The notes under the pieces: generated by a model
What the model was told of the DNA's origin: nothing
Seen by the model: the letters and a program-made list of their open reading frames with translations, nothing else
Databases searched by the model: none
Assembly: GCA_965116925.1 (NCBI GenBank)
Contig: OZ220744.1
Coordinates: 5,728,001 to 5,792,000, forward strand
Direction: 5' to 3'
Source: Candidatus Poribacteria bacterium
GTDB lineage: Bacteria; Poribacteria; WGA-4E; PCPOR2b
DNA length: 64,000 nt
Program-made: the position numbers and the translations under genes
Shown here: positions 7,442-26,304 of the stretch, piece by piece
Layout: each line of letters starts with the position of its first letter
How positions within the stretch are numbered: the first letter of the stretch is position 1

Positions 7442-8950
7442 ATGAAACGGCAGATTTTTTTCAGCTGTTGCTTGCTTTTTATCTTAATTGGAGACACCGT
7501 AGGGCAGAGGGTGAAAATTGATCCGGCGGAGATTGAGAAAATGATGCAGTTGCCTCAAGATGATTGGTTAAACCTAACACTGATGGGCACGAAAATTGGG
7601 TATGCCCATATCTATATGGAGAAATCAATATATGAAGGTGAGGATGCCATTCGGCTGCGTGCCGATATGGTGATGGACCTCCAGCGCACTGGCACCGGAC
7701 TAAGACTCGCAACAACGCGAATCTCGTATGTCGGTATGGATCTTGTCCCCCGCTATGTTATTACTACCTCCAATGAGACAGGCCAAGAGAAGCGGGTTGA
7801 AGGGCGTATCAGAAACAGTGTCGCTTACCTAGAGACAAGTCTTGCAGGCAAAACGACTCACAGCGAGATACCTATTTCAGGCGACACGATTTTTGAAGGG
7901 GTGATTAGTTACTTCCTCCTACAACGCAGTATTCAGGTCGGTGATGTACATATCTTGAATGTCTTCAATCTAGACCTCATGCAGCCCGTGAAAACGGAGG
8001 TCAGCGTTCTTCGAGCAGACCGGATCGAATTTGACGGCAAGACGGAGCCGGTTTATGTTGTCAATTATATGATGGATATTATGGGCGGGTTCACGACAAC
8101 CCAGTGGTTAGGACATGACGGCACAACGTATCGGATGGAGATTGGGCTGATGGGACTAAACATGGTTCTGACGAAGACCGATATGCAAACGGCACTTGGT
8201 GAATCCGGAGAAGTTGATGTTATCCTAAATACAAAGATCTTCTCCCAAGGGAAACGCCCAACTCCCCATGCGCGTCGTTTCAAAGCGCATTTACGGTTGA
8301 CCGAGGGGCAATTGGACAAAGCAGTAACGATTGATAGCCGTCAGGAACTGAAGGTTGATAGTGACCCACGCCATGGAGTGATCGCAATCAACGTACCCCT
8401 GATGGATCAAGCGGAAACGCCGAACCTGCCGATACAGAACCAACACGACAATGAGGACCTCGCGCAATTCTTGAAATCAACGGTGTATATCCAAGCGGAA
8501 CACCCAGCGATTCGGTCAAAAGCCGTTGAGGTGCTTGATGGGGAGACGAATGCTTGGAAAGCTGCAGAGAAATTGTGCCGATGGGTGTATAAAAATATCC
8601 GTGACAAGAACCTGAAAATTGGGTTTGGCTCGGCATTACAAACGTTAGAATCGTTAGAAGGAGATTGTACAGAACATACAGTCCTAATGATTGCAATGGC
8701 GCGCTCCGTTGGTATCCCTGCGCGGGTGTGTGCGGGGCTGGTATTTCAACGTGACGCTTTCTACTACCACTTTTGGCCCGAAGTGTATGTGGGCAAGTGG
8801 GTAGCGATGGAACCAACGCTCGGTCAAATCCAAGCAGATGCAAATCATATTCAACTCGCCGGCAGCGAGTTGGAATCCGACTCTATGCTGGAGTTCGGCG
8901 AAGGGGTGATGCGGACTCTAAATCAGCTTGAGATCGAGGTGCTTGAGTGA
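7442..8950 (+). CDS. secreted transglutaminase-like cysteine enzyme
   Basis: Signal peptide; GDCTEH, GIPAR, YYHFWPEVY, MEPT catalytic-core motifs. Confidence 0.88.
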   Translation: MKRQIFFSCCLLFILIGDTVGQRVKIDPAEIEKMMQLPQDDWLNLTLMGTKIGYAHIYMEKSIYEGEDAIRLRADMVMDLQRTGTGLRLATTRISYVGMDLVPRYVITTSNETGQEKRVEGRIRNSVAYLETSLAGKTTHSEIPISGDTIFEGVISYFLLQRSIQVGDVHILNVFNLDLMQPVKTEVSVLRADRIEFDGKTEPVYVVNYMMDIMGGFTTTQWLGHDGTTYRMEIGLMGLNMVLTKTDMQTALGESGEVDVILNTKIFSQGKRPTPHARRFKAHLRLTEGQLDKAVTIDSRQELKVDSDPRHGVIAINVPLMDQAETPNLPIQNQHDNEDLAQFLKSTVYIQAEHPAIRSKAVEVLDGETNAWKAAEKLCRWVYKNIRDKNLKIGFGSALQTLESLEGDCTEHTVLMIAMARSVGIPARVCAGLVFQRDAFYYHFWPEVYVGKWVAMEPTLGQIQADANHIQLAGSELESDSMLEFGEGVMRTLNQLEIEVLE

Positions 8951-11900
8951 AGCGGGAGGAGAAAGAGAGAGAACGAGAAAACGAGAAAACGAGAAAACGG
9001 GTCCTATTTTTTTGGTTTTCCGTTCTCTGTTTTTCACGTTTCACGTTTTACACGCTTCTAATCTTCTGGCTTTTTGTCACTGTTGCCGCCGCCAAACCTC
9101 CGCTTCAGATTATCCAAGCAAGCACGGATACTCTCCTCATCAAATTTGAGGCACCAACGCTGCAATTCAACTCGCAAGAAACCGATGGACGCACCTTTGC
9201 GCGGGTTTCTTTCACAGGAGCAAGCTTGACGACGGACGTAGGATGCCCCAGTCTGCCTGTTTATCCACAGTTAATTGGCATTCCCGTTGATGCCTCACCG
9301 TATGTTACCGTGATTGACTCCCGGCTTGAAGTCCGCCAAACCCAGCGCATTATCCCCACCCAACCATCGGGACTCACCACCGCCCAATTGATGTCCAGCA
9401 TCGACATCGACTTTTACCGACGGGATCGCTCCTACCCAACCAAACTGGTTGAAATAACACCGGTTGGCTTTATCCGTGGACAGCGGGTTGCACGACTCCA
9501 GATCCAACCAATTCAGTATAATCCCGCCAGATCGCAGCTCAAAATCTATCACGAGCTATTAATCCGAATTAACTTCAATTCTACACCCATCCAATCCTAT
9601 CAAGGCTCAAAGCGGCATCCTACCCCTTCCCTTTTGATAGAACCGTCGCAGGCTTTTGAACAGCTCTTTCAGACGAAGCTGCTCAATTATAATCAGGCAA
9701 AGACATGGCGACGCTTACCCCAAAATGTCGCAGCTGCTCCAACGGTGCAACGCACTATCGAACCCTCAAACAGATATAAAATCCGGATTAACCGAACAGG
9801 GATTTATGAAATAACATATAGTGAACTCAGACGTGCCGGTGCCAATCCTATGGGTATTGCGCTTGAAACCCTCAAAATGGAGAACCGTGGCCGGCGGGTC
9901 GGTATCTATATCTTTGACCACAATACAGATGGCAGATTTGATCGAGATGATTCGATTGTGTTTTACGGGGGTGCACCAATCGGGGATAGGTTTACCGATA
10001 CCAACGTGTATTGGTTGAGTTGGGGCGGCGTTGGGCGTTCACAGATCAATGTTAGAGATGCTGCCCCGAAAACGTCGAATGCCTCTACCCCATCTGCTTT
10101 TAAGAAAACTATCCGTTTTGAACAAGACCGTAAGTATGACCAGCTGGTAGATGTGAAATCTGAACAGGCAGACCACTATTTCTGGGAAAGTCTAACAGGT
10201 GGGGCAGATAGCAGGTTCAGCCAGAAGGATTTCCCGATTCAACTCCCTCATGCAGTAGAAGGGCAAATAAATCGAGATGCTGAGATTCGGATTAAGTTTC
10301 AAGGGGCATCGCGCCAAAGGAACGCCAGACATCAGGCGCGTATCCTGTTTAATAGCGCACAACTTGGTCAAGTTGCCGAGTGGCGGCAGCAAGCTGCACC
10401 GTTAGTTACGCGCAAAATCGAACCGTGGCGATTCAGTAAGTCCGAGAATACGAAGGTTCTGAGGATTATAGCCGAAGATCGCAACGACACCCCGACAGGT
10501 CAACCTGATTTCTATCTAGATTGGTTTGAAGTCGATTATTGGCACACATTTGAGGCATCTGAGGGAGTGCTTGCATTTAACTCGGAAACCGAACCCCGCA
10601 GAACCGGACGCGTTCAGTACCGGGTAACAAACCTTCATCGCCCCGGTGTCGATGTGTATCAAATCCACGATGGCAGTATTGTTGCAAAACTCATTAACGG
10701 TCAGGTTGAACGCAAGGACGGGAATTTCCAGCTAACCTTCGAGGATAATGTGACATCGCCAACCGGTTATTTTGTGGTTGAGCGAGGACAATATACCCAA
10801 GTGGATCACATTACCCTCGCCAAACCGTTAGTAATCAGCAACCCTGCAAACCAAGCGGATTACATCATTATCGCCCACAGCGAGTTTATAGATGCCATCC
10901 AGCCGCTTGCAGCCTTTCGGCAGTCACAGGGGTTATCTGTTACGGTTGTTGATGTCGAAGCGGTGTATGATCAGTTCAATCACGGAATTTTCAACCCCAT
11001 CGCCATCCAGAAGTTTTTGCGTCACACCTACAACCATTGGCGTGCTCCCAAGCCGACATACGTCCTGTTGGTCGGCGACGCACACTATGACTATAAAGGG
11101 GCAATTGTTAAGCGATATCGGGAGACACTCAATAGAGACTATGACCTTTCCCTAATCTACGTACCAACGTTTCACGGTTGGGCACCGGCGAGTGGGGAAA
11201 CCGCGATGGACCACCATTTTGTCACTGTCAGTGGCGATGACCCACTGCCGGATATGTTTATTGGACGACTTCCAGTGCAATCGGCACACGAATTAGACGA
11301 TATGGTGAAAAAGATTATCAATTATGATGCAAAGCGGCAGCCCGGCTTATGGCAGGGCAGGTTGATGCAGGTCGCGGATAACGAGGTGAACAACGTCGGG
11401 GACGATATTTTTGAGCGATCTAGCAAGCAGCTTATTGAGGAATATATTCCTGTCGGTTACGATACCCGCAAGGTATACCTGCGACAGATTGGGAGTCCAG
11501 AGCGCACCAATCAAGCTATCCTGACGACAATTGATGAGGGCGTTCTTGCCCTTGAATATTCGGGGCACGGTGGCACCCAAACGTGGGCGGATGAGGGCAT
11601 TTTCCGAATTACAGATGCAGCGAGTTTGCAAAATGTGCATCTACCATTTGTCATCACAACAACGTGCCTCAATGGGCAATTCGATCAGCCGCTGCAATTC
11701 GGGCAACGCAGTTTAAGCGAACAATTTCTGATGGGCAGTGCCGGTGCCATCGGTGTCTTGAGTGCGACCCGTTTGACTTACGCAACAGTCAATGCAGAGT
11801 TCGATAAAAATCTCTTTACCTCCATCTTCACTGTTAAACCTTCGACACTTGGTGCAATCATCGCCGATGCGAAAACGCAATTTATGATGGCTGCATCACC

Positions 11901-14900
11901 ACTGTGGATCCCCGGCGTAACACAATATACCCTCTTCGGTGATCCAGCAACGCGCCTTGCTGTGCCAGAACTGGAGATTCAAGTCGAGTTAGAGAACGTT
12001 GTGGTCGATCCAAACAAAGAGCTAATCGTCCGCCATAACGCTGTTGGGCAGCACCAATTTTTGCCGATTACAGGAGCAATAGAGTTTCGTAAGGCGACCG
12101 ATTTCAGTACAGGAACGATGTCGGCACTAGCACTATTTGCCAACGACCTAGATGATAATTTGACCAACGATCTTCAGCAACAACGGAATAACATCCAAGT
12201 ATGGCAGGGTGAGTTTGGCGCGATCCGTATTCCTATTCCAGAAGATGTCCCCTTCGGACAAGGGATCGTTCGCCTCTTCGCTTTTGATGATCAGCGGACA
12301 GCGGTTGGGGGGGTGAAATTCTGGACGTATCAACCCGCTATCTTAGAAGTTCGCGAAGATATGGATCCACTCACTAACACGCTGAATCTCTCCGTGTTGA
12401 TAGCGGACAATGAAGGACCCGCAGGACTCAAATCGATAGAGGTGGTTTGGAGTGATACTGTAGGGTCCAAGGAACGTACCGTGGGGATGATACCCCATCC
12501 AGCATCGGCTACCCCTGCGGTGAACGATGGGCGGTGGTACAAACTGCAAACTGCAATTCCCTTGCCGAAAGGCGGACAAACAGTACAGTATCAAATCGTG
12601 GTAACCGATCGCACCAATCATACAGTCAGGACCGACAAAAAATCACTCAAGGTGCCCGAAGGCGCGAATATCGCCATCGCTTCGGCGGCGATAGCTCCGC
12701 TCCGCTATGTCTTTTCACAAGAGAAGAAAGCCCACACGCTTACCGCCAAACTTGTCAATGATGGCGGGCAAAAAATTGATGTACCCATCGAAGTTTGGTT
12801 CTCGGAAGAAGATCCAGATCGGGATGGGGACGGTCAAATCGATCCTGGGGCAGATGTGCTTGGCAGTGTCTTAATCAGAACGGATGCATGGCATTCGGGA
12901 ACAACACATCTTCAAGAAACGATGGCGACCTTAATCCTCCCTGAACCGTTGTCCACCGGCCTTCATCGGATTTATGTCTTCGCGGACCCAGAATCACCCG
13001 ATGATAACCGTGAGGATGGGGTTATTGGCAAGCTTGATGAGCCCCGCTCGTTTGATAACAAAGGATCTGGATCTTTCGTGGTCAACGAATTTACCCTGAA
13101 GGCTGATAAAGAACTCACCGCGTTCAGCTTGGATCGGGTATTCGATATTGTATTCCCAATCGGAGCGACCCTTGAACCCACCACAACCCTTTCCATCAAT
13201 GCAATCGAACCACCCATCTCATTTCAACCCGGCCTCCGCTTTGTTTCGCTTCCCCATCTGCTAGCATCGCAAAGTAGCGCGTATCAAGTTGAATTACACT
13301 CCGAGGCGGAGCGGCTGGTCAAACCTGCAGCACTCAAGTTTCGTTTCGATTTAGATACTTTGAAAGGTCACTTCCAGACAAATTGGGGACTCAATCCCGA
13401 ATCGGTGGAATTTAACTCCATACTACAAAAAGAGGTCGAAAATCTTGCGATCTATCAGTGGCAAGCGGGTATTAACGCTTGGAAGCGGCTTCCCTCCGAG
13501 ATACTGCGCGACAATACTGGAAACTTGGTATCGGAAAAATTTGTGACATTGACACAAGCCGAAAACATAAGCGTTCAAAAATTGCAAATCTCTTATATTC
13601 GCGTGGATCCAAGCTACACGCCGGCGGGGAGATGGGCAATCCTTTTCCTTGATGCAGATCGGTATCGAGTCCTGCTCCAGCGAAAAGGCAAAAGTGAAAT
13701 TGAAGAGCTTGAGCAAATCGGGCGCATCCGTCAACCTCTCAGAGACGCAGGGTTGGGGATTGAGTTAGAGATTCCCCAACTTGGGGAAACAGATGTCCTA
13801 GGCAGAAATCTGGTCTTTGAATTCGGCGATGTATTGATCTTTGAAACTGATGTCAGTTCAAACGGAGATGTACACCTTTCGGTGCTGGGGAACACTAACC
13901 GTGGTGGAGGTTCTGCCCATGTGAACATTAGGACGAAGAATCAGATCGCTGGCAAAGGGGAACAGTTCAGCATCAGTGACTGGCTGATTTTCTTCCGGAA
14001 TAGCGAACACTTTGAGCTACGAAATGCACGAAACGAGCTGGCTCTGCATACGGCAGGAAATCCCGCTGTGGGGACGATTAACCAACTTTTGATTCTTGAC
14101 AACCTTGGAATCGAGGTGCTCGTTACATCTCCGATGGGTTCGGGCTTCAAAGGGACCGGCAATCTACCCTTTGAGTTTGGAGACAAGTTCAAATTCAGAA
14201 AGACAATGGTGGGAATCATCTCCGCAAAGGTCAGAGGGCTTTCCACCTTTGCACTGATGCAGAGCTCAGATCGGGAGTCTCCCAAAATCCAACTCTGGGT
14301 GGATGGAGAAATATCTAAGCCCGGCAGCACCATTTCACCCCGCCCGCAAATCTCTCTCCTCTTGACGGATGAAAACGGAGTGGATATGGACAGCCTCAGT
14401 CTAGCGGTAAGCAAGGATGGAGGGGCGTTTACAACAATCAAGGACCTTGAGATTGGGGGTGGGGGGATGACATCGGTTTCCATCCGCTACAACCCAACGC
14501 TGTTCATCGGCAGCTATCGTTTCAGAGTCAAGGCAAACGACCTCATTGGGAACACACTCGGCGGTGAGGCTGAATTCCGTGATTTTACCTTCTCTGTGGT
14601 GGATCAACCTGACCTTGAATCTCCAACGGTTGAAATCCACGTCAACGATGAAAAATTAATGGATGGCACGGTTATCCGTGAACAACCGAAGCTTGAGATT
14701 TTAATCGATGACGAAGGCGGGATCAGCCCAACGACGATTGAATTTGCCTTCGGTTCAACGATCAATCCGCTGTTTCCACTCCCTGAAGATCACTACGAAC
14801 TTGAGTTCAATGTCGCCCAACCAACGCAAGCGCGAATTATCTTTGAGCCTGATCTACCAAATGACGAGTATCAACTCCAAGTCGTTGCAACAGATGTCAG

Positions 14901-15243
14901 TGAAAACAGAACCGAATCGCAAGTCCGCCGTTTCCATCTTGAGGAGCCTGTATCCATCACTCACCTATTAAATGTGCCGAATCCCGTACGCACCAACACG
15001 GTTTTCACCTATAACCTTGCACAAGCACCAGACCAAGTCACAGTTAAAATCTATACCGTGAGCGGTAGGCTTATCCGGACAATCGAAGATGCCTCAATGA
15101 GACGGGGCTACAATGAAACCGACTGGGACGCTCGCGATGAGAATGGCGAACGTTTGGCAAATGGTGTCTACTTCTACAAAGTCACCGTTAAAACAGGTGC
15201 ACACAAAATCGAAAAGATCGGTCGATTGGCAATTCTGCGCTAA
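8947..15243 (+). CDS. C25 family (gingipain/PorU-like) cysteine peptidase with propeptide and C-terminal FlgD-Ig/T9SS-type sorting domain
   Basis: ADYIIIA, YVLLVGD, IGRLPV, YSGHG (His), TTTCLNG (Cys), YTLFGDP; C-terminal NVPNP...KIYTVSGRLIR...WDARD...LANGVYFY; exact start uncertain. Confidence 0.9.
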   Translation: MKREEKERERENEKTRKRVLFFWFSVLCFSRFTFYTLLIFWLFVTVAAAKPPLQIIQASTDTLLIKFEAPTLQFNSQETDGRTFARVSFTGASLTTDVGCPSLPVYPQLIGIPVDASPYVTVIDSRLEVRQTQRIIPTQPSGLTTAQLMSSIDIDFYRRDRSYPTKLVEITPVGFIRGQRVARLQIQPIQYNPARSQLKIYHELLIRINFNSTPIQSYQGSKRHPTPSLLIEPSQAFEQLFQTKLLNYNQAKTWRRLPQNVAAAPTVQRTIEPSNRYKIRINRTGIYEITYSELRRAGANPMGIALETLKMENRGRRVGIYIFDHNTDGRFDRDDSIVFYGGAPIGDRFTDTNVYWLSWGGVGRSQINVRDAAPKTSNASTPSAFKKTIRFEQDRKYDQLVDVKSEQADHYFWESLTGGADSRFSQKDFPIQLPHAVEGQINRDAEIRIKFQGASRQRNARHQARILFNSAQLGQVAEWRQQAAPLVTRKIEPWRFSKSENTKVLRIIAEDRNDTPTGQPDFYLDWFEVDYWHTFEASEGVLAFNSETEPRRTGRVQYRVTNLHRPGVDVYQIHDGSIVAKLINGQVERKDGNFQLTFEDNVTSPTGYFVVERGQYTQVDHITLAKPLVISNPANQADYIIIAHSEFIDAIQPLAAFRQSQGLSVTVVDVEAVYDQFNHGIFNPIAIQKFLRHTYNHWRAPKPTYVLLVGDAHYDYKGAIVKRYRETLNRDYDLSLIYVPTFHGWAPASGETAMDHHFVTVSGDDPLPDMFIGRLPVQSAHELDDMVKKIINYDAKRQPGLWQGRLMQVADNEVNNVGDDIFERSSKQLIEEYIPVGYDTRKVYLRQIGSPERTNQAILTTIDEGVLALEYSGHGGTQTWADEGIFRITDAASLQNVHLPFVITTTCLNGQFDQPLQFGQRSLSEQFLMGSAGAIGVLSATRLTYATVNAEFDKNLFTSIFTVKPSTLGAIIADAKTQFMMAASPLWIPGVTQYTLFGDPATRLAVPELEIQVELENVVVDPNKELIVRHNAVGQHQFLPITGAIEFRKATDFSTGTMSALALFANDLDDNLTNDLQQQRNNIQVWQGEFGAIRIPIPEDVPFGQGIVRLFAFDDQRTAVGGVKFWTYQPAILEVREDMDPLTNTLNLSVLIADNEGPAGLKSIEVVWSDTVGSKERTVGMIPHPASATPAVNDGRWYKLQTAIPLPKGGQTVQYQIVVTDRTNHTVRTDKKSLKVPEGANIAIASAAIAPLRYVFSQEKKAHTLTAKLVNDGGQKIDVPIEVWFSEEDPDRDGDGQIDPGADVLGSVLIRTDAWHSGTTHLQETMATLILPEPLSTGLHRIYVFADPESPDDNREDGVIGKLDEPRSFDNKGSGSFVVNEFTLKADKELTAFSLDRVFDIVFPIGATLEPTTTLSINAIEPPISFQPGLRFVSLPHLLASQSSAYQVELHSEAERLVKPAALKFRFDLDTLKGHFQTNWGLNPESVEFNSILQKEVENLAIYQWQAGINAWKRLPSEILRDNTGNLVSEKFVTLTQAENISVQKLQISYIRVDPSYTPAGRWAILFLDADRYRVLLQRKGKSEIEELEQIGRIRQPLRDAGLGIELEIPQLGETDVLGRNLVFEFGDVLIFETDVSSNGDVHLSVLGNTNRGGGSAHVNIRTKNQIAGKGEQFSISDWLIFFRNSEHFELRNARNELALHTAGNPAVGTINQLLILDNLGIEVLVTSPMGSGFKGTGNLPFEFGDKFKFRKTMVGIISAKVRGLSTFALMQSSDRESPKIQLWVDGEISKPGSTISPRPQISLLLTDENGVDMDSLSLAVSKDGGAFTTIKDLEIGGGGMTSVSIRYNPTLFIGSYRFRVKANDLIGNTLGGEAEFRDFTFSVVDQPDLESPTVEIHVNDEKLMDGTVIREQPKLEILIDDEGGISPTTIEFAFGSTINPLFPLPEDHYELEFNVAQPTQARIIFEPDLPNDEYQLQVVATDVSENRTESQVRRFHLEEPVSITHLLNVPNPVRTNTVFTYNLAQAPDQVTVKIYTVSGRLIRTIEDASMRRGYNETDWDARDENGERLANGVYFYKVTVKTGAHKIEKIGRLAILR

Positions 15244-15426
15244 CGTGTGAGCCAATCTGTGAATCGCCGAATCAAGCTCCAGTTTTGAAGTTTTGCCCCA
15301 TTTCTGACCATTTGCTTTTTCTTGCGCTTTATATGGAGATCGGTTATCAAAATCTTCCGTTCTAAAACCCCATCATTTATGGCGTGGATCCAGAACGGCT
15401 AACCCGGTTGTCTGTCAAAAAAAGTG

Positions 15427-15455
15427 TTGAAATTGCGGGCGAAAAATGATATAGT
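15427..15455 (+). promoter_or_regulatory. IS-borne sigma70 promoter (extended -10)
   Basis: TTGAAA-17nt-TATAGT with TGn; equivalent promoter in the second tnpB element. Confidence 0.7.
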
Positions 15456-15460
15456 TGTCT

Positions 15461-15540
15461 TGTCTTTCGTGGGGGCGTTTCAGCCCGACCGCATGGTAGG
15501 GGCCCCACATCCACTGAAACGGATATGAAAGCCAGAAAGC
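15461..15540 (+). ncRNA. candidate structured 5' leader RNA of tnpB (three-way junction with pseudoknot)
   Basis: Same stems and 7-bp kissing pairing as 25992-26069, with compensatory changes. Confidence 0.65.
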
Positions 15541-15550
15541 CGAGTCCCTC

Positions 15551-15796
15551 ATGAAAACCTACAAGTTCAAGATGTATAGCAATCACGGTAATGGTGAGTT
15601 GCACAAGACTATAGACGGACACGCCGAAGTGTGGAATCATTGCATTGCGCTTCAGCGTCGTTACTACGCTATCTATGGTAAACATATCAGCAAGTTTCGG
15701 TTGATAAACCATATTTTTAATAACATCTATAGGGTTGGGGCATCAACCCTCGAAGGAGAGGACGTAAGACTATCTTCGGATAGCTGTCCTTGTTGA
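15551..15796 (+). pseudogene. tnpB: tnpB remnant (N-terminal ~55 aa fused to C-terminal tail)
   Basis: MKTYKFKMY...VWNHCIALQRRYY (TnpB N-terminus) joined to NIYRVGASTL (TnpB C-terminus); RuvC and zinc finger missing. Confidence 0.85.
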
Positions 15797-15887
15797 TAGC
15801 GCAATTCGACTCCTATTGGCAAGGGACTCGTAAGAATCCCAAGCCTTTAGGTTTGGGAGTATGTCAAGGTTAGATCATAATGAGCTC
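15720..15887 (+). ncRNA. predicted TnpB omega/reRNA scaffold plus flanking guide
   Basis: Region from the tnpB 3' end to the right end (TCAA 15867) is retained; in this family the guide derives from the flank; boundaries approximate. Confidence 0.5.
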
Positions 15888-23845: not shown

Positions 23846-24787
23846 ATGAAAAGCACTATTACCATCGGTACACGCGGCAGCCAACTTGCCCTCTGGCAGG
23901 CAGAATATGTGAGGAAGCGTCTGAATGATCGCTTTCCCGACCGCTCGATTGAACTCAAGGTTATCAAGACAACGGGGGACAGAATTACAGACCGCTCTCT
24001 CGTCGGACTCGGTAAGGGGGTCTTTACAAAGGAGATCGAAATCGCGCTTTTGGACGGCACAATAGATCTCGCTGTCCACAGCATGAAAGACCTGCCAACG
24101 GATCTGCCCGATGGGCTTTGTATCGCCGCTATCCCTGTCCGTGAAGACCCTCGCGATGTGCTAGTCACGGAATCTGGACTGCTCCTCGATCAACTCCCGA
24201 AAGGAGCGAAAATTGGAACGACAAGCCCACGCCGTAAATCTCAGCTGTTACACTTACGTCCCGATTTGCAGGTTGTGGATGTTCGCGGAAATCTTGACAC
24301 GCGCCTTCGCAAGCTGCATGAGACAGAGCTTGATGGTGTTATCCTTGCCGCGGCGGGAATTAAACGGTTGATTGGTGAGGAAATTGTTACAGAATATTTT
24401 GAGGCAGATCAGATGGTCCCTGCTGCCGGGCAAGGGGCATTGGGGGTAGAAGCGCGCGCTGATGACCTTGAAATCAAGGCATTGTTAGACGCAATTAACG
24501 ATAGTTGTAGCGAAACTGAGGTGTTTGCAGAGCGGGTTGTGTTGGGTGAATTGGGTGGTGGGTGTCAAGTTCCGATTGGTGTGAACGCACTGTTGGAGGA
24601 CGATAGGCTTCATCTGATTGCTACGGTTTGCAGCCCTGACGGAAAACATCGCCTTCTTGAGAGGCTATCGAGTAATTCAGCGTGTGCCCAAGAGTTGGGG
24701 GTCAACCTTGCAACGAAGTTGATTCAGAATGGAGCGCACAAACTTGAGAGTCAGTTACCCCGCCCTGAAGTGACGGTGCTTGTTTGA
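23846..24787 (+). CDS. hemC: hydroxymethylbilane synthase (C-terminus supplied by IS)
   Basis: IGTRGSQLALWQ, GKGVFTKE, AVHSMKD, RGNLDTRL, GGGCQVPIG. Confidence 0.97.
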   Translation: MKSTITIGTRGSQLALWQAEYVRKRLNDRFPDRSIELKVIKTTGDRITDRSLVGLGKGVFTKEIEIALLDGTIDLAVHSMKDLPTDLPDGLCIAAIPVREDPRDVLVTESGLLLDQLPKGAKIGTTSPRRKSQLLHLRPDLQVVDVRGNLDTRLRKLHETELDGVILAAAGIKRLIGEEIVTEYFEADQMVPAAGQGALGVEARADDLEIKALLDAINDSCSETEVFAERVVLGELGGGCQVPIGVNALLEDDRLHLIATVCSPDGKHRLLERLSSNSACAQELGVNLATKLIQNGAHKLESQLPRPEVTVLV

Positions 24788-25977
24788 AGCATCCGTCCAA
24801 CGGGTCTTACAAAGTTTCGCGCTTCTGTCCCCTGACGGGGGATTTCGGGGTCGTTTGCAACCGACGCACCTCCACGCAAGGCTACAGCAGCCTTTTTGAT
24901 ATTTATCGCGGCGTTATGGTCTCTATTGAGGACCAACCCACAATGGGGGCAATCATGGAGACGATCCGACAACTGTTTAGGCACAATCTCACGACAACCG
25001 GAGCATTGCTGACTGGTATGGTGAGGTTTCACTTTGGTGAACTGCTTGCCGGCACTTGCAGCCTTGCTTTGCAGTTTCAATCGAAAGCTACCCCATCCCG
25101 CGTCAGATATACTCTTGGCGAGGTAGTGATTCTTCAACATATTGGTAATGGTCAAGTTCTCTACAGCGACCTCATCACATCGTTCAAGGATACGATGGGC
25201 TGCCTTAAACTGGAAATCCTTGCGCTGATTCGCTATCCGTTCATGGCAACGGGCGACAATCTCACGTTGTTTTGCCCGGCGGCGGCTCCCCTTTTTGCGG
25301 CGAGACAATACGCGTTGATGTTTGCCAAGGCGTTTTTCAGACTGACGATAATGGCGGGGGTTGGGGATATGTTCGCCATCCGAATCTACGGCAAACGAGT
25401 TAAGTCCCACATCTACGCCGATCGTTGTGTGGACAGGGACTTCTATAGGATCTGGCCCTTCGACGCAGATAGTTACATACCAACCGCTGGCTCGCTTGAT
25501 GACCGTCAGATTCTTGATGTTGCCATCGGCTAAGGGGCGGTGATAACGGATCTTGAGGTGTCCTATTTTCGGAACAACGACTTTGGCAAACTTACGATGT
25601 ACACTCCGGACCAGCTGCTTGGACAGGTGGCTAAAGGTCATTGACCGGTATCGCCCTTCGCCTTTGAAGCGTGGGAAGCCCGGTGCCTCTCCGTTCTTGG
25701 CACGGCGGAAGAATGCTTTGTACGCTTTATCCAAACGGCGCATCGCATCTTGGAGAACATCCGCGTGAAGTCCTGCATAAGCCTTGGAGGCTGTTTTCAA
25801 GTCAGGTAAGGCGTTGGCTTGGGTCGTCCATTTGACAGAATCATTATTTTTCTTATAAGCGTCTATCCGCCACGCTAACGCTTGATTGTAGAGATTTCGC
25901 AACAAGGCAAGCCAAAGCAAAAAAGTATGTCGCTGTTTCGTCGTAGGATAGGCGCGATATTCATAAGTCTTTTTCAT
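24751..25977 (-). CDS. tnpB: RNA-guided endonuclease TnpB
   Basis: YEYRAYPT, PGFPRFK, RuvC IGVDVG / VAVENL / RDHNAAINI, zinc finger CSGC..CPHC; start 25977 or in-frame 26001. Confidence 0.95.
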   Translation of the reverse strand: MKKTYEYRAYPTTKQRHTFLLWLALLRNLYNQALAWRIDAYKKNNDSVKWTTQANALPDLKTASKAYAGLHADVLQDAMRRLDKAYKAFFRRAKNGEAPGFPRFKGEGRYRSMTFSHLSKQLVRSVHRKFAKVVVPKIGHLKIRYHRPLADGNIKNLTVIKRASGWYVTICVEGPDPIEVPVHTTIGVDVGLNSFAVDSDGEHIPNPRHYRQSEKRLGKHQRVLSRRKKGSRRRAKQREIVARCHERIANQRKDFQFKAAHRILERCDEVAVENLTITNMLKNHYLAKSISDAGWGSFRLKLQSKAASAGKQFTKVKPHHTSQQCSGCREIVPKQLSDRLHDCPHCGLVLNRDHNAAINIKKAAVALRGGASVANDPEIPRQGTEARNFVRPVGRMLQTSTVTSGRGN

Positions 25978-25991
25978 ATGAGTTAGCTTTC

Positions 25992-26069
25992 TGGCTTTCA
26001 TTCCTTTTCTACGAGGTGTAGGGGACATCCCGAAGGGTTCGGGATGGTAGAAATCCCCTACGAAAGCCA
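25992..26069 (-). ncRNA. candidate structured 5' leader RNA of tnpB
   Basis: P1 UGGCUUUC/GAAAGCCA, P2 GUAGGGGA/UCCCCUAC, P3 CAUCCCGAA/UUCGGGAUG, P4 CCU/AGG, pseudoknot UUUCUAC/GUAGAAA. Confidence 0.7.
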
Positions 26070-26074
26070 TAAGA

Positions 26075-26103
26075 ACTGTACCATATTTCACACAACTTTT
26101 CAA
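26075..26103 (-). promoter_or_regulatory. IS-borne sigma70 promoter for tnpB
   Basis: Minus strand TTGAAA-17nt-TACAGT with TGn. Confidence 0.7.
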
Positions 26104-26304
26104 CGAAAAAGGAGCGCAGTTTCCTCCCCGCTCTAAAGAATGGGGGCTCCACTGCGAAGAGTTGATGAAATGTGAAACGTGATGGAAAGAGATGAAAGAG
26201 GGAAACTGAAAATAGGATAATGGGACTTGGGCTTCTCGTTTTCTCACTTTCTGCTTTTTCGCTCTTCGTGCATTACGTTTCACGCACTACGTAAAGCGTG
26301 AATC

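Follow-up and report, generated by a model that had tools for sequence, protein, structure and literature searches.

Two elements of the IS200/IS605 transposon family lie in a 64,000-nucleotide (nt) stretch of a Candidatus Poribacteria genome (contig OZ220744.1, positions 5,728,001 to 5,792,000; hereafter the window, whose own numbering is used unless stated otherwise). Both carry the same leader ahead of the nuclease gene tnpB, which is complete in one element and internally deleted in the other. The leader is a real, covarying, pseudoknotted fold, and one strand of its closing helix is doubled in tandem. We propose that it is a bistable translational switch of the tnpB mRNA that would limit TnpB synthesis and would be carried on a modular promoter-leader cassette, a model to which we give an even chance of being correct. 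As modelled, the leader most likely sets how much nuclease is made.

Structure and covariation of the leader

In the fold, the first nucleotides of the transcript would form the 5' strand of helix P1, and P1 closes a compact three-way junction. One arm of this junction consists of P2 and P3 with a 6-7-nt bulge and the other of a short P4 hairpin, whose loop pairs with the bulge to form a pseudoknot. The original prediction had described this fold in two copies, here called copy 1 (15461-15542, plus strand) and copy 2 (26069-25984, minus strand), each comprising the leader and a second copy of the P1 3' strand, rep2. The letters and pairings read as claimed in both copies, including the exact complementarity of bulge and P4 loop (Table 1); the letters of P3 and of the pseudoknot differ between the copies and the layout is alike. 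The claimed nested fold is the minimum-free-energy fold for copy 2 (-37.0 kcal/mol), which in a 106-nt context has a folding z-score of -5.3, with none of 200 shuffles folding as well. For copy 1, minimum-energy prediction returned a different fold (z -0.3; -24.2 kcal/mol, the claimed nested fold scoring -21.6 when pseudoknot energy is left out), because the folding program spends the pseudoknot pairing as a nested helix. The claimed fold of copy 1 is supported instead by its score of 89.8 bits on a covariance model (R1) built from 16 of the related places found by BLAST in the source genome.

Covariation was tested on 52 distinct leaders with 500 shuffles and slid controls. Standard pairs occupied 88.9% of cells compared with 72.4% in shuffles, and the covariation score was 0.501 compared with 0.209 when shuffled; none of the 500 shuffles reached 0.501 and the slid controls had a maximum of 0.172. 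The paired fraction was 94% for P1a (the 5' strand of P1 with the first copy of its 3' strand), 98.1% for P2, 98.4% for P3, and 86.5% for P4, and double-sided changes were found at 8/8 pairs of P1, 7/8 of P2, 7/7 of P3, and 3/3 of P4. The preservation of pairing despite sequence change that had been noticed between the two copies is therefore borne out in a larger alignment, with all four helices covarying across the family.

Among 79 distinct leaders, the bulge and the P4 loop form a pseudoknot of at least five contiguous Watson-Crick pairs in 69 and of at least six in 60, with 42 different pseudoknot sequences in all. When bulges and loops were combined across leaders as a control, only 5.8% reached at least five pairs and 2.3% at least six. 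The bulges and loops of each leader were taken from the columns of the model alignment; local minimum-energy folds misparsed about 27 of the 79. The register of the pseudoknot varies between leaders (a 6-bp pseudoknot with a 4-bp P4, or a 7-bp pseudoknot with a 3-bp P4), which is why pairing counted in fixed columns is only 60.8%. Structure is conserved far above sequence, P2 being the most sequence-conserved helix. The strands at the junction vary and are short, at 0-2 nt, 1 nt, and 2-6 nt; their letters differ between the two main genera, and no invariant junction letters were seen in those genera, although no formal test was made.

Tandem duplication of the closing helix and a model of translational control

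The original prediction overlooked that the 3' strand of P1 is directly doubled in tandem (rep1 and rep2) and that both copies covary with the 5' strand. The duplicated units differ wholly between lineages yet match their own 5' strand; examples are GAAAGAC, GAAAGCC, GGAAGGA, GAAACGG, CCUGAUA, CUUGAUA, ACGGAUA, CUGUGA, and CACGAUGUA. The helix formed by the 5' strand with rep2 (P1b) is 87% paired, with double-sided changes at 7/9 pairs. A 6-mer from the leader's own 5' end has two or more perfect sites in 73 of 79 leaders, compared with about 14% when a foreign 5' end was used, whereas a looser tandem test (at least 5 bp including G-U) was not discriminating (75/79 against a shuffle mean of 53.7). 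It is this tandem duplication that speaks for a switch.

P1a and P1b are mutually exclusive, having one common 5' strand. Their computed stabilities, which exclude the pseudoknot and tertiary stacking, are closely balanced: over 45 leaders, the energy of forced P1b minus that of forced P1a averaged -0.13 kcal/mol (sd 2.5), the two lay within 2 kcal/mol of each other in 28/45, and P1b was the lower in 22/45. In 38/45 leaders, 3-9 nt separate the end of the rep2 helix from an open reading frame (ORF) of at least 250 amino acids (aa), and in 36/45 the helix begins at -16 to -11. Relative to the tnpB start codon, P1b by this computation spans about -15 to -4, which is the ribosome-binding zone.

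The source genome uses Shine-Dalgarno sequences, with GGAG found upstream of 36% of long ORFs against a background of 5.6%. The tail of its 16S rRNA 3' end (G000:C1:2324674 onward) reads ...GAUCACCUCCUUUCU, and GAAAG is about 7-fold enriched upstream of long ORFs (10.8% versus 1.5%). Together, the tail and this enrichment suggest that, in this genus, the P1 5' strand (GNCUUUC) resembles the 16S tail, and that rep1 and rep2 resemble an extended Shine-Dalgarno element.

In the switch that we propose, the 5' strand would pair with rep1 in state A (P1a), leaving the stretch before the tnpB start codon single-stranded, and with rep2 in state B (P1b), burying the region from about -15 to -4 where ribosomes bind. 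The first repeat would thus act as a built-in decoy for the ribosome site, and the folding of the knotted junction, or the binding of something to it, would set the balance between the states. As the 5' end would be paired in either state, the message may also be protected from decay. Among the candidates for a trigger are the order of co-transcriptional folding, a small ligand, temperature, and a protein, for instance TnpB. Whereas the fold with its pseudoknot, the two alternative helices, and where these lie with respect to the start codon are shown by the sequences, we infer where transcription starts, how ribosome binding is affected, and what the trigger is.

Several points weigh against a switch of this kind. 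Two equal states would by themselves give only modest repression, so that a trigger is required, and the model does not account for the requirement for the pseudoknot. The balance of energies is that of helices computed without their tertiary context, the heuristic used for picking helices misassigned some leaders (7/45 gaps fall outside 3-9 nt), and the evidence from G-U pairs cannot separate RNA from the top DNA strand. Resemblance of rep2 to a Shine-Dalgarno sequence is limited to some lineages (GAAAG, GGAAGGA) and does not extend to the second large genus. Where tnpB is absent, as in a few contexts, at least 25-35 nt separate rep2 from the next start codon, and masking cannot work likewise there. 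Finally, contigs from RNA libraries also run upstream of the predicted start (e.g., 25982-26140) and may contain DNA.

Promoter, start codon, and RNA coverage

The promoter-like sites previously reported upstream of both copies were confirmed (Table 1). Across the family, a sigma-70-like site with at least 9/12 matches lies directly upstream in 57/79 leaders, and the distance from the end of the -10 box to the first paired nucleotide is 4-6 nt in 34/54. This spacing suggests that the RNA 5' end lies at the foot of P1. The leader would then be the 5'-terminal part of the tnpB mRNA of IS200/IS605-family elements, with its own sigma-70-type promoter probably travelling along.

The same placement bears on a different role, in which the leader would be an RNA stability or processing element: a compact knotted domain, its 5' end paired flush, would shield the tnpB message and the 3'-derived guide RNA from decay that depends on the 5' end. 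Owing to the tandem repeat, that end would stay paired with or without a ribosome on rep2, and the domain may persist as a small RNA acting in trans, like the 5'tnpA RNA of IS200. This would fit a predicted start that falls 4-6 nt past the -10 box at the first paired nucleotide, a 5' strand that is paired in both states, and the presence of the motif in places that have no tnpB and in a mini-element where it would lead straight to the guide-RNA part. There is also a precedent in the IS200 tnpA 5' untranslated region (5'UTR), which is reported to be processed into a regulatory small RNA (PMC5435999). However, a simple hairpin would be enough to protect a 5' end, which leaves the placement of rep2 over -15 to -4 and the balanced energies unexplained, and no terminator or conserved processing site was seen. 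We consider a stability element rather unlikely.

An AUG at the junction had been given weight in the original prediction, and its description is accurate: in copy 2 the codon is in frame with tnpB (26001 versus 25977), and in copy 1 it opens a 9-codon upstream ORF (uORF) that ends in AUGA. As a shared functional part it does not stand, being confined to this genus, where some local copies lack it too; the second large genus, g14, does not have it. With a frame relative to tnpB that varies, and with a helix-turn-helix (HTH) match that starts at residue 1 of the shorter protein, this non-conserved AUG/uORF was rejected as a working part of the leader. As the Pfam HTH match starts at residue 1, the tnpB start is placed at AUG 25977 and not at the junction AUG 26001. 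Copy 2 and its five sister copies are 97-100% identical over 151 nt, and the 4 nt immediately ahead of the tnpB AUG (window 25978-25981), which read UCAU, CCAU, CAGC, or CCCU, account for most of their differences.

Assembled metatranscriptome contigs (Logan) from two studies cover the leader, the whole element, and its flanks. In two RNA runs of one study, contigs join 24745 to 26289 via 16 other letters; this joint does not fall on the mapped ends of the element and probably represents a strain without this element copy. RNA contigs also break inside the leader at 25987 and 26026 and continue into other leader and TnpB families, with another P3 and another tnpB start. The joint and both of these ends are branches of the assembly graph into other strains or leader families, and the two breaks indicate that different families share identical leader segments.

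Host elements and the promoter-leader cassette

Copy 2 belongs to a full tnpB-only element (Table 1) that is present in six copies in the source genome, five of which are near full length, with the sixth diverging part-way through tnpB. Its left-end and right-end hairpins resemble each other and have CCCCG/CGGGG-type stems; the left-end one is presumably the site of TnpA (the Y1 transposase), by analogy with IS608 biology. The left-end hairpin lies about 60-80 nt upstream of the leader, which itself begins about 100 nt inside the left end. Copy 1, described in the original prediction as a second tnpB element, proved from BLAST comparison with full-length copies to be a deletion derivative: only the left end, promoter, leader, and first codons of tnpB remain, joined to the right-end part. 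Because of this deletion, the leader would lead almost directly into guide-RNA sequence. A 2,098-aa ORF ends about 100 nt before this mini-element.

Among the ORFs downstream of leaders, all 14 tested TnpB-like proteins have an OrfB_IS605 match and 13/14 a Cas12f1-like TNB match. By comparison of coordinates, a leader lies upstream of 22/26 OrfB_IS605 matches in the source genome. The 41 complete TnpB proteins encoded behind leaders form 11 clusters at 60% identity, with 21-51% identity between clusters, which upholds the earlier view that the leader is shared by divergent tnpB elements.

Two elements near G000:C1 1036880 (minus strand) and 5978061 (plus strand) share the left-end hairpin and N-terminus (MKKTYEYRAYPT) of the copy 2 element and have 22 nt in place of its approximately 150-nt promoter-leader cassette. 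That related elements do without it suggests that the promoter-leader cassette is a module. We rejected the leader as a left-end transposase hairpin, given that the end hairpins lie elsewhere and that these relatives keep the hairpin without the leader.

IS200/IS605 elements transpose in single-stranded form, with ends that fold. The structure might accordingly form in single-stranded DNA of the active strand and serve as an accessory site for the Y1 transposase. Besides this mode of mobility, five Y1_Tnp matches are encoded in the source genome, and covariation cannot distinguish DNA from RNA. The matching end hairpins are, however, separate from the leader, the left one about 60-80 nt upstream of it and the other at the right end; the absence of the cassette from two related elements with the same left-end hairpin indicates that it is not needed as an end structure; and the placement of the leader is tied to a promoter and a start codon. 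A DNA site of this kind is very improbable.

The longest complementarity between the leader and the 3' guide-RNA region, measured over 41 elements, was no more than chance (7.9 nt within elements versus 7.7 nt across elements), and the leader has no identity to the 3' region beyond chance. Long-range pairing of the leader to the guide-RNA or right-end region was rejected on these numbers. They bear equally on whether the leader is a putative platform for a protein or ribonucleoprotein (RNP), such as TnpB, the guide-RNA complex, TnpA, or a host protein, that would recognise the shape of the knotted junction, lock one state, and give feedback on the nuclease. A bistable platform needs an effector, and such binding would suit a structure conserved far more than its sequence, with P2 the most conserved, and a leader kept across TnpB lineages of 21-51% identity. 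On the other hand, lineages that divergent would all need to recognise one fold, and the complementarity to the guide-RNA region is at chance level. We regard the platform as improbable.

A broader reading, which we hold only tentatively and think somewhat doubtful, is that the cassette represents a mobile riboregulator of a new, sensor-type class, which recombination would have carried among at least 11 TnpB lineages and which host genes would also have taken up. The effector sensed by its three-way junction might be temperature, a small molecule, a host protein, or TnpB in complex with its guide RNA, and through the tandem decoy a small binding energy would switch the ribosome site on or off. 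Uptake by host genes might be represented by a variant behind sigma-54-like promoters and by one copy before a UvrD-like helicase gene.

The first of these contexts is found in other Poribacteria (L069-L075 and L149), where a variant of the motif, UCCUUCC with GGAAGGA twice, has a 5-bp pseudoknot and no tnpB behind it; L045 (G000:C1:2911445-2911550) is related. This variant sits in a block of about 500 nt conserved across three genera that includes TGGCAC-N5-(A/T)TGC, which we take to be a sigma-54-like promoter consensus, and GTCCCA...TGGGAC palindromes upstream. A small conserved ORF (MAVGSV...) lies about 30 nt past rep2, followed at one locus by a PAS/sigma-54 activator gene. The second context, L046 (G000:C1:5832997-5833099), is about 41 kb beyond the window; its leader, CCGUUUC with GAAACGG twice, stands behind TTGACA-17-TATAAA, and the next ORF (509 aa) has a UvrD-helicase domain and is not tnpB.

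Table 1. Features of the two leader copies and their elements, in window coordinates.
Feature	Position	Strand	Details
Long ORF	8947-15243		2,098 aa
Copy 1 mini-element	15344..15867	+	~525 bp, internally deleted; BLAST against the source genome's full-length copies
Left part of mini-element	15344-15720	+	Matches left end, promoter, leader, first ~57 tnpB codons
Right part of mini-element	15721-15867	+	Matches last ~147 nt of full-length copies (right-end/guide-RNA part)
Copy 1 promoter-like site	15427..15455	+	TTGAAA-17-TATAGT, TG-extended -10; 10/12 matches; ends 5 nt before P1
Copy 1 leader core	15461..15534	+	Basis: sequence, fold energies, R1 model score
Copy 1 P1a	15461-15468 with 15527-15534	+	Single U-C mismatch
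Copy 1 P2	15469-15476 with 15502-15508	+	
Copy 1 bulge	15477-15483	+	GUUUCAG
Copy 1 P3	15484-15501	+	
Copy 1 P4	15510-15512 with 15521-15523	+	
Copy 1 pseudoknot loop	15514-15520	+	CUGAAAC, partner of the bulge
Copy 1 rep2	15535..15542	+	Second copy of P1 3' strand, GAAAGCCG; ends 8 nt upstream of the AUG at 15551
Copy 1 ORF	15551-15796	+	81 aa; no Pfam match
Copy 2 element	24750..26169	-	Full IS200/IS605-family, tnpB-only; right end finishes ...GGGGTAACTGAC; alignment of 6 copies and flanks
Left-end subterminal hairpin	26126..26146	-	TTTA loop; separate from leader fold
Copy 2 promoter-like site	26075..26103	-	TTGAAA-17-TACAGT, TG-extended -10; 9/12 matches; ends 5 nt before P1
Copy 2 leader core, state A	25992..26069	-	P1a, P2, 7-nt bulge, P3, P4, pseudoknot
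Copy 2 P1a	26069-26062 with 25999-25992	-	
Copy 2 P2	26061-26054 with 26025-26018	-	
Copy 2 bulge	26053-26047	-	UUUCUAC
Copy 2 P3	26046-26026	-	9 bp
Copy 2 P4	26016-26014 with 26005-26003	-	
Copy 2 P4 loop	26012-26006	-	GUAGAAA, exact complement of the bulge
Copy 2 rep2	25984..25991	-	Second copy of P1 3' strand, GAAAGCUA; predicted P1b partner; ends 6 nt upstream of tnpB AUG
tnpB	24751..25977	-	408 aa; HTH_OrfB_IS605 (residues 1-45), OrfB_IS605, Cas12f1-like TNB
Right-end hairpin	near 24778-24758	-	TTCA loop

Distribution of the leader family

Where the original prediction had only two examples, hundreds exist. BLAST found about 27 related places in the source genome of 6.47 Mb, and model R1 gave 32 matches there, with both window copies included in the family. 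R1 also matched in 53/101 relatives, in 72/151 genomes of a phylum sample, and in 31/41 genomes of a second genus. A broader covariance model (R2), built from 45 diverse matches, matched in 115/151 sampled Poribacteria genomes, comprising all 19 of genus g1, all 57 of g14, 27/38 of g8, and 0/15 in families f4-f9. R2 made at least 1,462 matches in the 115 genomes, a lower bound because no more than 26 candidates were scored per genome. The covariance-model search that had been suggested thus finds a large family.

A pattern scan was run over 185,579 species genomes, one genome per species, and 65 of its 70 loci are labelled Candidatus Poribacteria (sponge symbionts). The other five are from Peribacillus, Latescibacterota, Chitinophagaceae, Prolixibacteraceae, and Gemmataceae. 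Four of these five loci have no model match, and the Chitinophagaceae locus (L122) has a weak partial match to P1 only (18.1 bits, E 0.0024). None of the five whole genomes contains a match at E <= 0.001, and we therefore rejected these loci as family members and treated them as chance pattern hits. In three other phyla, 0/151 genomes each matched with R1 and R2; these sets held no positive control genome, and the result means that the family was not found in the genomes searched and not that it is absent.

Comparison with known RNAs

Rfam 15 (4,227 covariance models) gave no matches at gathering score in the 64-kb window. Around both copies there were only chance-level matches (E 1-10, 7-16 bits against gathering scores of 42-104 bits), and at gathering score 15 further diverse leader loci returned only two tRNAs. 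The leader therefore matches no RNA family in Rfam 15 in the window, at both copies, or at the 15 diverse loci, in agreement with its earlier description as unrecognised.

In the expression platforms of translational riboswitches and in other bistable switches, the region where ribosomes bind is contested by one strand of the helix that closes the sensor. The leader is similar in that mutually exclusive structures, P1a and P1b as computed, are linked to gene expression by competing for that region. It differs in having no evident ligand pocket, and its competitor is an exact tandem copy, not an unrelated anti-anti-sequence. A three-way junction that is pseudoknotted and can be closed by alternative helices is typical of riboswitch aptamers with expression platforms, and balanced states would respond to small binding energies, which raises the alternative that the leader is a putative riboswitch, or a self-cleaving ribozyme, whose junction and pseudoknot bind a ligand or cleave. 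We think this quite improbable: none of the 4,227 Rfam models matches in the window, around either copy, or at the 15 further loci, the junction strands are short and variable with letters that differ between the two main genera, and a transposon nuclease gene gives a ligand no metabolic logic.

The TnpB guide RNA (omega RNA or reRNA) is a 3' feature whose sequence runs over the end of tnpB and the element's right end and whose guide comes from flanking DNA. Like the leader, it is structured, contains a pseudoknot, and comes from the same elements, but the leader has a 5' location inside the element and no complementarity to the 3' region. It lies upstream of tnpB and differs in sequence from the end hairpins, and is thus neither a guide RNA nor an end hairpin. 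Among the functions listed in the original prediction, then, the evidence favours a translational switch; a ribozyme or riboswitch is disfavoured by the few conserved unpaired nucleotides and the absence of a model match; and nothing supports a second RNP component, as there is no complementarity to the 3' guide-RNA region.

Two groups of RNAs from related transposons invite comparison. The IS605-orfB-I RNA motif (RF03065) is part of Rfam 15 (PMC11701678) and is also a structured RNA motif, named for its tie to IS605 orfB (tnpB) genes. Its Rfam model does not match the leader, and the two are set apart by model search only. In IS200, a stem-loop in the tnpA 5'UTR is reported to block translation initiation (Ellis et al. 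2015, PMC4513863). Like it, the leader would be a cis-acting 5'UTR structure in an mRNA of the IS200/IS605 family that represses an element protein and keeps its level low. IS200 uses a simple stem-loop together with the antisense RNA art200 and Hfq to control tnpA (PMC4513863), whereas the Poribacteria leader precedes tnpB, folds into a pseudoknotted three-way junction that would stand at the very 5' terminus, and would mask the ribosome site by one of two closing helices that arise from a tandem duplication. As in IS200, a helix lies over the ribosome-binding region (P1b, 87% paired and covarying, by computation), and a 5'UTR location would fit the promoter-like site, its fixed spacing to P1, and the position before tnpB. 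Where IS200 has tnpA and the cis-antisense RNA art200, the leader is followed by tnpB in 14/14 ORFs tested, and no antisense promoter is common to both window copies, a single chance-level site being seen in copy 1. The IS200 5'tnpA RNA is reported to be a processed small RNA from the highly structured 5' part of the transposon message (PMC5435999). The leader is likewise a structured 5' message part that could persist and act alone; a processed form of it, or a target in trans, would be putative.

We class the leader with structured transposon leaders that mask the ribosome site, among which its pseudoknotted junction and tandem decoy are unusual. Our literature search found no work treating Poribacteria and TnpB together, and the listings and abstracts on TnpB with UTR, pseudoknot, or translation describe no such leader.

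Significance

tnpB is among the most abundant prokaryotic genes, and its product gave rise to Cas12 and serves as a compact genome editor. To our knowledge, little is known about how TnpB elements control the amount of nuclease. The leader defines an uncatalogued RNA family whose helices and pseudoknot are exceptionally well supported, and no description of a tandem closing-helix copy as a ribosome-zone decoy, with two equally stable states, was found in the titles and abstracts of the literature. The host phylum is uncultivated, and the RNA-level behaviour put forward here is read from the DNA. If the proposed switch is real, the leader would be a natural, portable translational regulator for TnpB and would offer a simple design principle for synthetic riboregulators. 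It would also mean that regulatory cassettes move as modules between transposon lineages, and possibly into host genes.

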